From: Candidatus Saccharimonadota bacterium
GTDB taxonomy: Bacteria > Patescibacteriota > Saccharimonadia > Saccharimonadales > Saccharimonadaceae
Assembly (NCBI GenBank): GCA_013333625.2
Contig: JABCOL020000001.1
Span: 1 to 62,534, forward strand
DNA length: 62,534 nt
Direction: 5' to 3'
The notes beneath the pieces are model-generated. The model had not been told where the DNA came from. It saw only the letters and a program-made list of their open reading frames with translations, and made no database searches. The translations under genes were made by a program, and so were the position numbers. This document shows positions 134-52,287 of the stretch, in pieces (position 1 is the stretch's first letter; every line of letters begins with the position of its first letter).

Positions 134-183
134 CGCTCAAGTCATCACAAACAAAGGGCGAGAAGTGCCCTTTTACTTGAGCG
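134..183 (+). ncRNA. Structured 5' leader, copy A
   Basis: CGCTCAAGT 134-142 pairs ACTTGAGCG 175-183; AAAGGGC 153-159 pairs GCCCTTT 167-173; loop GAGAAGT; 10-nt 5' bulge. Confidence 0.7.
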
Positions 184-48633: not shown

Positions 48634-49290
48634 TTATTCCCCAGCCTTTTTGCTGTGCGCTGCCCGCCATTTAGCGATTTTGCCATGATGTCCGCTAAGT
48701 AGCACTTCTGGCACGCGCAAACCTTGCCATTCCTCGGGCCGGGTGTATTGCGGGTATTCTAGCGTTTCGCCGTCGCTGAAGCTCTCAATCGCTGCGCTGT
48801 TTTCGCCGCCGAGTACGCCAGGGATTAACCGCACAATCGAATCAATAATCGTCATCGCTGGCAATTCGCCGCCAGTTAGCACATAATCGCCAATACTAAG
48901 CTCTTGATCAACCAGCGCCATAATTCGCTCGTCGTAGCCCTCGTAGCGCCCGCAGATTACAATATAACCATCTTCGCTTTCGCTGTATTGCTGCGCCAAC
49001 GCCTGCCGCCAACGCTGGCCGCGCGGTGTCATGATTAAGACTTTAGCGCCAGGGTCAATCTGTTTAGCCTGCTGCACCGCATTCCATAGCGGCTCGACCA
49101 TCAGCAGCATACCATCGCCGCCGCCGTACGGCGTATCGTCGACCGTCCGGCGCGGGCCTAATCCAAACTGACGCAGATCAATCGTCGAGAGCTCAACATA
49201 GCCGTCTTTTTGCGCTTTCCACATCATCGAACTGCCGAACACGCCAGCGAACATTTCTGGGAATAAGGTAATCACCTGAATTTTTCTCAT
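48634..49290 (-). CDS. trmD: tRNA (guanine-N1)-methyltransferase
   Basis: VDDTPYGGGDGM, CGRYEGYDER, SIGDYVLTGGE, YPQYTRP. Confidence 0.97.
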   Translation of the reverse strand: MRKIQVITLFPEMFAGVFGSSMMWKAQKDGYVELSTIDLRQFGLGPRRTVDDTPYGGGDGMLLMVEPLWNAVQQAKQIDPGAKVLIMTPRGQRWRQALAQQYSESEDGYIVICGRYEGYDERIMALVDQELSIGDYVLTGGELPAMTIIDSIVRLIPGVLGGENSAAIESFSDGETLEYPQYTRPEEWQGLRVPEVLLSGHHGKIAKWRAAHSKKAGE

Positions 49291-49344
49291 CTGTTATAGT
49301 GTAGCAAGTCTTGACACGGATGTCTATCTGTGATATATATCAAC

Positions 49345-49393
49345 TTTTGCTCAAGGTAGTCTAGGGCGGAAGTCGCCCTTGCTTTGAGCAAAG
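49345..49393 (+). ncRNA. Structured 5' leader, copy B
   Basis: TTTTGCTCAAGGTA 49345-49358 pairs TGCTTTGAGCAAAG 49380-49393; AGGGCG/CGCCCT with loop GAAGT; 4-nt bulge. Confidence 0.72.
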
Positions 49394-49406
49394 AGAGGAG
49401 ACGGTC

Positions 49407-49577
49407 ATGAAGACCGTTACCGCCGCCGTCGCCCCTGACCCCGAGCCCACCGCTATCGAGCGTGCGCGTTTGCGCGCGCTTGATAACTACATCAAGGCCA
49501 AGCAGAAGGGGCGAATGTTCCGCGCGGCCTTTTGGGCCGGGGCCTTCTCAGGCCTGGGCGGCCTGAGAAGCAACTGA
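49407..49577 (+). CDS. 56-aa basic peptide MKTVTAAVAPDPEPTAIERARLRALDNYIKAKQKGRMFRAAFWAGAFSGLGGLRSN (cassette B cargo; absent from ORF track)
   Basis: Manual translation; GAGGAG 6 nt before ATG; fills the space between the conserved 5' and 3' elements. Confidence 0.78.
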   Translation: MKTVTAAVAPDPEPTAIERARLRALDNYIKAKQKGRMFRAAFWAGAFSGLGGLRSN

Positions 49578-49700
49578 GCCCACCGAAAATAGCTCGCTGA
49601 AAACTACTGTTCAATCCGGTTCGAGACGCACATTCCTGCGTTTCCTGGGTTGAATACCCAGTTTCCAGCTTGAGCACGTTTTCGGCGGGCTATTTTCATG
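49578..49700 (+). ncRNA. Cassette B extended 3' structure
   Basis: GAAAATAGCTCGCTGAAAAC 49585-49604 pairs GTTTTCGGCGGGCTATTTTC 49678-49697; inner helices TTCAATCCGG/CTGGGTTGAA and GAGACGCA/TGCGTTTC; non-Watson-Crick positions in these helices are G.U. Confidence 0.75.
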
Positions 49701-49876
49701 TCTTGCAATAATTTGCTACAATCTAGATTTTATTGCATAATAGTATTTGACTTATATTACGTTATATTTTATCTATATATTTGTGCTTTTACAAAAATAG
49801 TTGTATAGCCTCAATTGACACGTTTGGCTTTTCGTGTAATAAATTATGCCTGGCCTTCTCGAAATTTCGCCCCAAC

Positions 49877-49903
49877 AAAAAAACCGCCTAAAAAGACGGC
49901 TTT
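49877..49903 (-). terminator. Intrinsic terminator of rpsP-khpA
   Basis: Minus strand AGCCGTCT-TTTT-AGGCGGTT followed by a U-tract. Confidence 0.75.
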
Positions 49904-50006
49904 CTTGCACAAATAAGTCTCTCAAACCATTTGTAGGTTTGCTCGCAGTAGAGCTTTTGTACTTTGTTTTCGTTAGTTCAGGGTTCTCGCATGAACTTAC
50001 TTATGA

Positions 50007-50414
50007 TTATATATCAAGGTCGTCTAGTTCTGCAAGCTCTTGGCGCGACTTTTTTGCGAAATCGCTTTCGGTTTCTGCGTTTTCTGGGTCATTTTCCACA
50101 GAATCACTAGTAGTGTTTTCCACATCATTATCCACTACAGCCGAATCGGCGTCCTCGCGCTCGTCATTATTGACGATTTTCAGGTTGTAATGAGCGGTAT
50201 TTTTAGCACCCAACGCCCGCAGCAGCGTGCGCAGGCCTTGCGCGGTCGAGCCGCGGCGGCCAATCACCCGGCCCAAGTCTTCTGGATTGACAGTTAGCGT
50301 CAGCAAAACACCCTTCTCGTCGACAATCCGGTCAACAACCACATCATCTGGATGTCCTACTAGTGATTTTACGATATATTCGACAAATTCCTGGTCAATG
50401 GTCGACATGCCCAC
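50007..50414 (-). CDS. khpA: KH-domain RNA-binding protein with acidic tail
   Basis: VEYIVKSLVGHP, DLGRVIGRRG (GxxG); directly downstream of rpsP. Confidence 0.88.
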   Translation of the reverse strand: MGMSTIDQEFVEYIVKSLVGHPDDVVVDRIVDEKGVLLTLTVNPEDLGRVIGRRGSTAQGLRTLLRALGAKNTAHYNLKIVNNDEREDADSAVVDNDVENTTSDSVENDPENAETESDFAKKSRQELAELDDLDI

Positions 50415-50538
50415 GGTATCTCCTCCTTTGCGGTCACACGGTTACTATCGTACTTTTATTGTAACATGCTTTTGCTATGAAATCGAAAAACGCGCTCCAG
50501 CCATACAGTTAGAGCGCGCTAGTTCGTGATTAAAAGCG

Positions 50539-50901
50539 TTAGGCTTCAGCTGGAGCTTCTGCCTCTTCGGCAGCTGGCTCTTCTTTTGGCTGATTCTTGC
50601 GCAACTTTTCAGCATTCTTGACCGCTTTAGTCTTGCCGCCCTGGAACTCTTTAACCCATTTCGGCAGCTTGACACCAGCTTCTTTTAGCAACTTCGCAAC
50701 GCGCGGCGTCGGTTGAGCGCCGTTATCAAGGTATTTTTGAGCAGCCTCGACATTGATATTAGCGTCTTTGGTGTGCGGGTTGTAGCTGCCGACATAAGCG
50801 ACCACGCGGCCGCTCGATGGATGGCGCTGTGCTTCCTGGACGGCGACGCGGTATACCGGATAAGCCTTGCGGCCCAAACGTTGCAAACGAATTGCGAGCA
50901 T
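50539..50901 (-). CDS. rpsP: 30S ribosomal protein S16
   Basis: MLAIRLQRLGRK...YRVAV...GSYNP...GAQPT. Confidence 0.97.
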   Translation of the reverse strand: MLAIRLQRLGRKAYPVYRVAVQEAQRHPSSGRVVAYVGSYNPHTKDANINVEAAQKYLDNGAQPTPRVAKLLKEAGVKLPKWVKEFQGGKTKAVKNAEKLRKNQPKEEPAAEEAEAPAEA

Positions 50902-51170
50902 AAAATTAAAACTTCCTTTACTTCACGTTAGTACTATTGTTACTTCTGTCATATTCTAGCGTGTTACAGGTAAAATGTCAACAAAGCGCCTAAGCCGCCG
51001 CTTAGACGCCTTTTCGTTCAAGTCTAGCCTATTAACCAATTCAGGCAGAAAACACCGCTAGAGGGCGCAAAAACGGCCAAAACGGCTCAAAAACACTTAA
51101 AATTTGCAATTTTTGCGAAATAATTGCGAAAATCGTTGACATGGTGATTCATATGTGATATATATATATC

Positions 51171-51233
51171 AGCTTTTCGCTCAGAGTTACCGAAAAAGGA
51201 GCGAAAAGTCGCTCTTTTTGCTCTGTGGAAGCT
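51171..51233 (+). ncRNA. Structured 5' leader, copy C
   Basis: AGCTT/AAGCT, CAGAG/CTCTG and AAAAGGAGCGA/TCGCTCTTTTT helices; loop AAAG. Confidence 0.7.
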
Positions 51234-51248
51234 GGAAAGGAGAACGCG

Positions 51249-51497
51249 ATGGATGTCATCGTCGTCTCACTGCCTCTCATAGGAAGGTTCGCCTTTATCC
51301 CCGACAGAGATGTGCAGCTGGCTCTCAGCAACATGTCTGCGGAAGAGAAGCGAGTCGTTCTCGCTAACATGGAGAGACAGACAGCCTCTCTCCTGGCGCT
51401 CCAGTGTGCCGCCATCTTCGCCCCCGACATGTCGATCTCCAAGAGCATCGACTCTGGGTTGTACATCGCCAGTCAGATGGTGAAGATCAACTCCTAG
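51249..51497 (+). CDS. Hypothetical 82-aa protein (cassette C cargo)
   Basis: AAGGAG 6 nt before ATG 51249; codons biased to CTC/ATC/AAG/CAG. Confidence 0.78.
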   Translation: MDVIVVSLPLIGRFAFIPDRDVQLALSNMSAEEKRVVLANMERQTASLLALQCAAIFAPDMSISKSIDSGLYIASQMVKINS

Positions 51498-51500
51498 TGT

Positions 51501-51570
51501 CGAGCCCGCCGAAAATAGCTCGCTAGAGGTTTAAAACCTCAGCGCGGCCCTCTGGCGGGCTATTTTCTTT
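51501..51570 (+). terminator. Cassette C 3' structure, probably also terminating convergent rnc
   Basis: GAAAATAGCTCGCTAGAGG 51511-51529 pairs CCTCTGGCGGGCTATTTTC 51549-51567; alternative inner hairpin GAGGTT/AACCTC. Confidence 0.75.
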
Positions 51571-51576
51571 GGTTTT

Positions 51577-52287
51577 TTATTGCCGCTTTCTATACTCTTC
51601 CAGCGCTGCCCGGGCGGCTTGCTGCTGGGCGGTTTGTTTGCTAGGGCCGATGCCTTTACCCATCAGTTTGTCGCCGACATAAGCGCCGAGCGTGAAGACC
51701 TTGTCGTGGTCTGGGCCGTCTTCGGCGATGACTTTGTAGACTGGCGTAGCGCCGTCGACGCGCTGGCTGATTTCTTGCAGATGGCTTTTGGGGTCGCGCC
51801 AAGAGCCGCTCTCTAAAATCCCGTCAAGCTTACTGATTGTGTGCTTCTCGATAAAGGCCGCCGCGGCATCATAACCGCGCTCCAAATAAATCGAACCGAT
51901 CACTGCTTCGTAAGCATTGGCTAGAATCTGATGGCGCGCCCGCTCGGAACCATGCTTCTCGCCGCGGCTCATCCGCACCAATGGCTCATAACCAAGCTCT
52001 TCGCCAGATTTAGCGTTGCTAGTGGTGTTAACTAGCGCCGCCCGCCAGCTAGTCAGGATTCCTTCCGGCTCGCTATAATGTTTATATAAATAATCCGTCA
52101 CCACCAGCTCTAGCACGGCGTCGCCCAGAAATTCTAAACGCTCATTGTGCTCGCTCACCGATTTTTTGTGCTCGTTGACATAGCTGCGATGCGTCAAAGC
52201 AGTAATCAGAAGCTGAATGTCTTTATATTCAAAACCTAATTTCTGCTTCGCCCAATCTTGGTACGGCCCGGTTGGCATACCGCTCAT
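51577..52287 (-). CDS. rnc: Ribonuclease III
   Basis: ALTHRS, NERLEFLGDAVL, dsRBD DPKSHLQE. Confidence 0.97.
   Translation of the reverse strand: MSGMPTGPYQDWAKQKLGFEYKDIQLLITALTHRSYVNEHKKSVSEHNERLEFLGDAVLELVVTDYLYKHYSEPEGILTSWRAALVNTTSNAKSGEELGYEPLVRMSRGEKHGSERARHQILANAYEAVIGSIYLERGYDAAAAFIEKHTISKLDGILESGSWRDPKSHLQEISQRVDGATPVYKVIAEDGPDHDKVFTLGAYVGDKLMGKGIGPSKQTAQQQAARAALEEYRKRQ

Follow-up and report, generated by a model that had tools for sequence, protein, structure and literature searches.

A conserved 5' leader hairpin as one state of a structured mRNA cassette family in Saccharibacteria

In a 62,534-nt stretch of a Candidatus Saccharimonadota genome (positions 1 to 62,534 of contig JABCOL020000001.1, assembly GCA_013333625.2; hereafter the window), an initial annotation had described a conserved 5' leader RNA hairpin at positions 134-183 with two further copies downstream. 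This hairpin is real, and it is one of two states of the leader in a family of structured mRNA cassettes. It is best explained as the 5' module of a standardised, end-protected monocistronic mRNA, probably folded over its whole length, which occurs in many copies and occupies fixed chromosomal slots with swappable cargo. Comparative sequence analysis establishes a common unit layout, predicted leader folds that exclude each other, exchange of cargo, folded open reading frames (ORFs) and a foreign codon signature, together with a closed 5'-3' panhandle and a predicted 3' hammerhead in sister classes. The architecture is well supported; the function is put forward as a hypothesis. The family appears to be new: no description of it was found in the literature searched, which left most subscription journals out of reach.

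Three units in the window

The three hairpins (A, 134-183; B, 49345-49393; C, 51171-51233) exist as written in the initial annotation, with minimum free energy (MFE) z-scores of -3.05, -3.38 and -2.07, respectively. In copy A, 134-142 pairs with 175-183 and 153-159 with 167-173, leaving a 10-nt bulge (143-152), a loop (160-166) and a bulged T174. Each hairpin stands between a promoter of the form TTGAC-N-TG.TATATA and a small ORF closing in a long hairpin. The units were scored by MFE z-score, by promoter and 3' motif matches against shuffles and with Rfam covariance models. Two flanking motifs are enriched in the window, GTGATATATA with 12 matches against 2.8 expected and GAAAATAGCYCGC with 7 against 0.33, and none of 100 shuffles reached either count. 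A unit runs in the order promoter, leader, hairpin over the Shine-Dalgarno (SD) sequence, small ORF and structured 3' end. H1 below denotes a 5'-terminal helix of the leader, and P1/P2 the fold of the initial annotation.

92-120, forward: unit A promoter; -35 TTGACT at 92-97, extended -10 TG-A-TATATA ending in 115-120, then a TA run and a predicted start at A127
128-166, forward: unit A helix H1; 128-138 with 156-166, 11 bp, 5'-terminal and predicted to form first
134-183, forward: unit A P1/P2 fold; excludes H1 and is predicted to be more stable
184-200, forward: unit A hairpin enclosing the SD sequence
200-616, forward: unit A cargo ORF; 138 amino acids (aa), two hydrophobic helices, a coiled coil and a short beta region, without a family match
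608-687, forward: unit A 3' module; AAGGGC across the stop codon, GCCCGC, a hairpin at 627-687 (z -5.4) and a T tract, converging on dnaE
49311-49339, forward: unit B promoter; overlaps the divergent trmD promoter, with a short TA run and an A only 3 nt past the -10
49343-49393, forward: unit B leader; H1 pairs 49343-49352 with 49364-49373, P1/P2 spans 49345-49393
49407-49577, forward: unit B cargo ORF; encodes 56 aa, basic, with strong folding (z -3.2)
49577-49700, forward: unit B 3' hairpin; long (z -9.0), with an inner conserved YTTGAGC and two alternative outer pairings
51136-51164, forward: unit C promoter; lies in the rpsP-rnc slot, with a start predicted at A51171
51172-51233, forward: unit C leader; H1 intact (51172-51182 with 51199-51209, 11 bp), P1 3' strand partly decayed
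51249-51497, forward: unit C cargo ORF; 82 aa, close relatives having unrelated ORFs here instead
51502-51572, forward: unit C 3' hairpin; pairing 51511-51567 (z -4.0), then a T tract, converging on rnc

The structure model of the unit A protein has low confidence (predicted local distance difference test, pLDDT, 58.7). No family in Rfam 15 matches the window units; only two tRNAs in the window reach the gathering score, and a search of 48800-52000 gave two chance-level matches only. Pistol, twister and hairpin-ribozyme readings of the window's class of units were compared by eye with consensus sequences and dropped, Rfam giving no such match.

The spacing of the promoters places the predicted start at an A ahead of RCUUUU. 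Among 215 promoters, this A lies 3 nt (17 cases), 5 nt (76), 7 nt (92) or 8 nt (23) from the -10. The TA run (115-126, 49334-49341 and 51159-51170 in the window) varies in two-nt steps across relatives, which could reflect phase variation of the start site or assembly noise. On the minus strand, trmD is seemingly leaderless: a promoter-like TAGACA-17-TACACT (49290-49330) ends 8 nt ahead of its ATG and overlaps the unit B promoter. Between unit B and a KH gene, a further TTGAC promoter-like site with a terminator-like hairpin (49846-49905) has no clear cargo; it could be a small RNA, or a slot that is empty or has decayed.

Two exclusive folds of the leader RNA

The leader lies directly behind the start, itself predicted only, as the initial annotation had proposed. 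RNAalifold applied to the collected leaders returns the same fold that had been drawn from the window, and in an alignment of 38 leaders its 12 pairs are kept in 98.9% of cells. The claim of compensatory changes stands in one respect and fails in another: 43 cells are changed on both sides against 14 in shuffles (0 of 500 as high), while the five pairs with double changes are matched in 65 of 500 shuffles, and kinship among the 38 leaders inflates both kinds of count. No U tract follows the stem on the sense strand, which agrees with the statement that it is not a terminator, and a role as 5' stabiliser or handling tag is plausible. A sequence-specific tag in the AAG(U) loop, in contrast, is not supported. 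Variants of the loop (GAGAAGT, GGAAGGT, AAAAGT, AAGAGT) exchange A and G freely, and its length grows with the U-run at the 5' end.

The GAGAAGU loop matches, as a complement, the first bases of the RNA itself (5' RCUUUU...), and together they give the 5'-terminal hairpin H1. Of 124 distinct leaders, 78 have an H1 of at least 10 bp, a length that 0.9% of shuffles reach, and one of at least 7 bp is present in 100 of 113, 33 of 43 and 31 of 39 leaders of three class groups against a null of about 0.2. The pattern used to parse 69 leaders holds the GCTC, GGGC and RRGY blocks constant, which partly presupposes the pairs they form. Covariation in these leaders nevertheless extends to the free parts: a 4-U run meets a 6-nt partner in 21 and a 5-nt run a 7-nt partner in 47; this compensatory indel is respected in 68 of 69, and UUUUC always stands opposite G. 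This is the match between loop and U-run that pairing in H1 demands, and the conservation of AAGU is explained by its pairing with the 5' end.

H1 and P1/P2 are mutually exclusive. P1/P2 has the lower computed energy in 68 of the 69 leaders (mean -32.2 against -24.3 kcal/mol), and H1 can form ahead of it. Wobble pairs in P1 (49 G.U against 3 A.C) point to selection on the sense strand. Where the same promoter precedes a leader of another class, H1 is retained and the P1/P2 fold is missing. This marks H1 as the family trait: all leader classes have it in common, unlike the fold first described. A hairpin containing the SD sequence beats the null in 49 of the 69 leaders. By computation, these leaders combine a metastable 5' structure with SD sequestration, the logic of type I toxin mRNAs.

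Slots and exchange of cargo

The units sit among bacterial core genes in the loci examined, and their cargo is exchanged. At the rpsP-rnc slot, 13 close relatives share flanks and promoter with the window; in 13 of these 14 near-identical genomes, the window included, the cargo is one of three unrelated ORFs (found 4, 3 and 6 times). In the fourteenth (L338, G426:C2) the promoter is kept and foreign AT-rich DNA begins right after the TA run. The other 17 rpsP-rnc loci comprise 14 empty gaps of 57-111 bp, one with another unit and two that are unclear. Grouped by upstream flank with single linkage, which may merge slots, 17 of 23 multi-unit slots hold more than one cargo family, and 15 families recur at two or more slots. 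Swaps are also seen inside the chassis. Cargo at the same slots in the window and in genome G001 is 44, 39 and 85% identical, against 96-98% for flanking proteins. A non-ribosomal gene block was noticed after rpsH inside a ribosomal-protein cluster of G001 (L367, 9373-15300, G001:C3).

The 235 cargo proteins form 79 families with a median of 89 aa, and 34 of the 79 have a membrane-like segment. A few automatic ORF calls in this set are wrong; those at L061 and L085 are out of frame, and a Nanosynbacter-type cargo at L055 has an early stop relative to L044 and L080. Cargo evolves fast (pooled dN/dS, the ratio of nonsynonymous to synonymous divergence, 0.40 over 36 pairs), with dS about 1 against 0.07-0.17 in the flanks. 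None of 93 cargo proteins (57 + 36 tested) matched a Pfam family above cut-off, and the idea of a capsid or replicase among them was rejected on that result. Searches of PHROG gave three clear cargo matches, one of them a coiled-coil match. Two of the tested proteins resemble phage families strongly, one of them with relatives in Gordonia, Mycobacterium, Lactococcus and Bacillus phages. Another cargo family occurs in three viral contigs (two at 68-71% GC) that lack the chassis. One protein scan of viral contigs returned no locus, and the protein atlas search with the unit A protein gave only leads scoring under 0.9. Relatives of cargo are also found in Nanosynbacter HMT-352 and oral taxon 488, and the cargo of L581 resembles Actinomycetota clusters (score 0.96). 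No common C-terminal charge signal was found in the cargo proteins; speculatively, the shared signal would lie in the RNA rather than in the proteins.

Folding along the ORFs and codon usage

The first 135 coding bases were compared with synonymous shuffles, 12 for each ORF. Cargo ORFs have a mean z of -2.43, with 45 of 89 below -2, against -0.45 (5 of 72) for windows of Saccharibacteria (TM7) genes and -1.08 (6 of 29) for Actinomyces phage xhp1. The folding is stronger on the sense strand than on the antisense strand (z -1.65). The three ORFs of the window score -0.8 (A), -3.2 (B) and -2.0 (C).

Codon usage of the cargo correlates with that of phage xhp1 (r=0.80) and less so with window genes (0.23) or ribosomal proteins (0.47), and 54 of 89 cargo ORFs have a phage-like codon score against 1 of 51 TM7 genes. 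The excess of CTC, CCC and TCC persists in unpaired codons, and recent changes in this excess are near balance (11 gains, 14 losses). As a separate observation, TM7 coding DNA (36 core genes of the window) strongly avoids GGAG and CTCC, with observed/expected ratios of 0.29 and 0.15, and the coding strand also avoids CCC, GGG, TCC and GGA, though all tRNAs are present in genome G404.

3' ends and sister classes

The window units belong to class I, whose 3' end is a long hairpin with an inner YTTGAGC. In class II, a 5' TGAYAA strand finds a perfect complement of at least 9 bp at a distance of 300-1000 nt. This is so in 54 of 67 units, compared with 7.8% after partners are swapped, and the pairing closes the RNA into a panhandle. 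The 5' untranslated region (UTR) of class II units contains, as its SD-containing junction, the Rfam motif RAGATH-10 (RF03147; cut-off 41.2 bits). Eight of 20 class II loci tested score above gathering (61-93 bits), and no class I leader in the window exceeds 41.2 bits. Among 101 genomes of the family, nine have RF03147 matches at E<=0.001 and four above cut-off; of six of these nine that were inspected, five lie within full units and four are accompanied by a hammerhead.

A complete type III hammerhead core (CUGANGA/GAAA, an NUH site and three stems) was found 7-8 nt past the panhandle in 28 of 67 class II units, its stems showing compensation; the 148 class I entries have none. Its RF00008 scores (28-29 bits) are below the gathering score of 48.5, and self-cleavage is putative. 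No minus-strand hammerhead was found. The 3' end of class III units is an H-type pseudoknot, seen in 6 cases, among which one variant is compensated.

Several loci combine classes. Class I and class II units stand in tandem in one slot at L135 (G001:C16), L314, L477 and L493, where the class II RNA folds into a single closed rod. Nanosynbacter-like genomes (L436, L437, L438 and L440) contain another leader/trailer class with its own conserved 3' structure, L438 joining a class I leader to that trailer.

Distribution

A genome scan with the 3' hairpin returned 114 stretches, and all 80 named records are Saccharibacteria. In the genus of the nearest genome, 78 of 105 genomes have the promoter-start pattern, with up to 13 matches each, and a reversed control pattern had zero matches there. 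It was further matched in 24 of 201 genomes of the family and 14 of 251 of the order; the pattern also matches ordinary promoters, and these outer tallies are therefore overcounts. Units were counted only after a locus had been read. On that basis, real units occur in about seven more genera of the family and in one other family (L581), the remaining matches outside the genus being ordinary promoters such as that of rplC. Named or Nanosynbacter-like loci led to five genomes, each with 4-5 units. Published tables for TM7x and Southlakia list ratios or annotation that do not allow the units to be mapped. In genus g226 (L406-L408), the pattern is followed by a very short 5' hairpin and a 115-aa ORF with a terminator and low GC at third codon positions; these could be minimal members or unrelated.

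Possible function and alternative explanations

A 5' hairpin near +2 shields RNA from 5' nucleases. H1 would form during transcription at about this position and may cap the 5' end in the same way; it may also be the common handling tag, with 5'-ARCUUUU as its constant sequence. In class I, refolding from H1 to P1/P2, about 8 kcal/mol lower, would release the 5' U-run for a partner to read, and could act as a timed or partner-controlled switch, while the SD hairpin would damp translation in the producer cell. The RNAs might then, speculatively, persist in free form and pass into the attached actinobacterial host, where the cargo would be translated as effectors. It is tentatively suggested, at a confidence that stops short of probable, that the units are tagged and protected mRNAs whose design lets them last as free RNA, with delivery into such a host the likeliest purpose. 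With the same reserve, mRNA export would explain three things at once, namely unrelated proteins with a shared RNA signal, lengthwise folding and a non-native signature. The broader proposal that epibiotic Saccharibacteria use mRNA, not protein, as effectors, exporting 4-13 shuffled genes through a cell-cell conduit for translation by the host, is more doubtful, as is the corresponding reading of the chassis as a 5' H1 tag, a folded ORF and a closed or ribozyme-cut 3' end.

A preprint (10.64898/2026.06.21.733656) reports uptake of host RNA by a patescibacterium through tubular contacts, and codon usage complementary to the host. Host-to-parasite uptake makes a conduit plausible; the preprint concerns Microgenomatia and the opposite direction, and does not show the one proposed here.

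Several further observations weigh against export, as does the direction reported in that preprint. Phage xhp1 is only a proxy for the host, and 35 of 89 cargo ORFs do not score host-like. The excess of AAG, GAG and CAG lies mostly in paired codons, a comparison that is partly circular, and recent synonymous changes reduce it (26 losses, 4 gains). Recent changes overall run from GC to AT (135 against 62), which fits drift towards TM7 composition. The TM7 anti-SD is normal and the tRNA set of G404 full, so that nothing bars translation in cis; two would-be proofs of host translation, missing tRNAs and a missing anti-SD, were rejected on these findings. The ORF of unit A is not unusually folded (z -0.8). 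Pairing between the 5' and 3' ends of class I is weak, the own duplex beating the control in 94 of 129 units (mean -11.2 against -8.9) and not in B or C, and the class I panhandle is suggestive at most. The pattern is also lacking in 27 of the 105 genomes of the genus.

The main alternative, possible though likewise doubtful, is that the units are moron- or PeSL-like slots acting in cis, with strong and stable mRNAs for the epibiont's own fast-evolving membrane, host-contact or anti-phage proteins. The leader would then be a 5' stabiliser only, recombination between shared ends would swap the cargo, and the codons would be inherited from donor phages or hosts. Units with their own promoter and terminator in swapping slots, the membrane-like segments in 34 of 79 families, phage relatives of cargo without the chassis, the ability of TM7 to decode the units and the AT-ward recent changes all speak for this explanation, and natural competence is reported for Saccharibacteria (PMC10633639). 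It leaves unexplained the selection for ORF folding, the closed panhandle, the hammerheads and two conserved, exclusive leader folds, as well as a foreign signature maintained at dS near 1.

It is unlikely that the units originated at the RNA level, as DNA versions, now in the chromosome, of satellite- or virus-like RNA segments that an RNA phage or some unrecognised polymerase amplifies or packages in trans; equally unlikely is the accompanying view that H1 and the 3' modules serve as signals for replication or packaging. Folding on a genome scale, partly shared by the antisense strand (z -1.65), would fit it, as would the panhandles, hammerheads and 3' pseudoknot, the divergence of cargo relative to its flanks (dS about 1 against 0.07-0.17) and the L338 slot, which breaks exactly behind the TA run. 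Set against these, reverse transcriptase (PF00078) was found in none of five genomes; levivirus replicase (PF03431) was likewise found in none of the five, in a search whose control was silent and which covered no other family of RNA-dependent RNA polymerases. Nor was there a minus-strand hammerhead, and four DNA patterns run on viral contigs, one of them loose, gave only chance matches and no unit among the matches listed. The promoters, moreover, are slot-specific DNA.

A very unlikely explanation is that the units are mRNAs of the type I toxin-antitoxin kind, where translation of toxic membrane proteins is held back by a metastable 5' hairpin, a sequestered SD and long-range pairing. The folding logic resembles that of aapA3 (PMC6733600), and the units are multi-copy with many small membrane proteins, but a consensus scan placed an antisense sigma70-like promoter in 3 of 126 units, the level of shuffles (3%), and the cargo comprises 79 unrelated families of about 40-250 aa that are freely lost or swapped. 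Least credible of all is that the units are recombination or transposon ends working at the DNA level (attC-, IS200/REP- or MITE-like), with hairpins that act in single-stranded form. In favour, the copies are dispersed, sites occur both filled and empty, and class II terminal complementarity recalls inverted repeats. Against it, wobble pairs are confined to the sense strand, a hammerhead and an SD hairpin belong to RNA, cargo is swapped within the chassis as well, and tyrosine recombinases number one in four of five genomes and three in the fifth. Compared by eye with the attC end consensus RYYYAAC/GTTRRRY, unit A has GGCTAAC at its stop, and A-C show no GTTRRRY end.

Significance and comparison with known systems

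The role of the type IV secretion system of Patescibacteria is described as unknown (PMC11665869). For host manipulation by these bacteria, the units offer a defined, countable gene set that can be found by its RNA signature, and they occur in cultivable, transformable bacteria. Should the RNAs reach the host, bacteria would be delivering mRNA from cell to cell, and the units would be a natural model of how a stable mRNA for export is built. If they act in cis instead, the units still provide a setting for an orphan Rfam motif and for bacterial hammerheads that had lacked an explanation, and they constitute a chromosomal gene-shuffling system founded on RNA structure.

Integron cassettes and phage morons are exchangeable single small genes of phage-like origin. 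Unlike attC cassettes, each unit has its own promoter and a shared RNA chassis, and the loci read have no prophage context. Leviviruses, satellites and obelisks combine folding of coding sequence, closed ends, ribozymes and small ORFs of unassigned function; the units differ in lying in chromosomal DNA behind sigma70-type promoters, with no replicase or reverse transcriptase found in the five genomes and no minus-strand ribozyme.

In the PeSL cassettes of T4-type phages, too, repeated promoter and stem-loop modules flank small ORFs of unassigned function that are shuffled by recombination; PeSLs are promoter-terminator junctions in clustered phage regions (PMC2839356). The present units are dispersed in the bacterial chromosome and flanked by core genes, the viral scans being at chance level. 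Their cargo is exchanged, and, unlike PeSLs, their conserved part is the transcribed leader and trailer structure, with the ORF itself folded.

The type I toxin mRNA aapA shares a metastable 5' hairpin, an SD hairpin, long-range pairing, multiple copies and small membrane proteins (PMC6733600). The units, in contrast, show no antisense promoter beyond the level of shuffles in the consensus scan and no evident conserved toxin among their 79 families, and their cargo is swappable and reaches about 250 aa. The same differences hold for hok, a type I toxin mRNA of the same folding kind.

Two Rfam families finally touch the sister class. The class II hammerhead has the full type III core (RF00008) with compensated stems, scores below gathering and is a putative self-cleaving ribozyme. 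The likeness to RAGATH-10 (RF03147) is confined to the SD-containing 5' UTR junction of class II and is lacking in the window's class; what Rfam lists as an orphan small RNA is here one piece of a larger mRNA unit.
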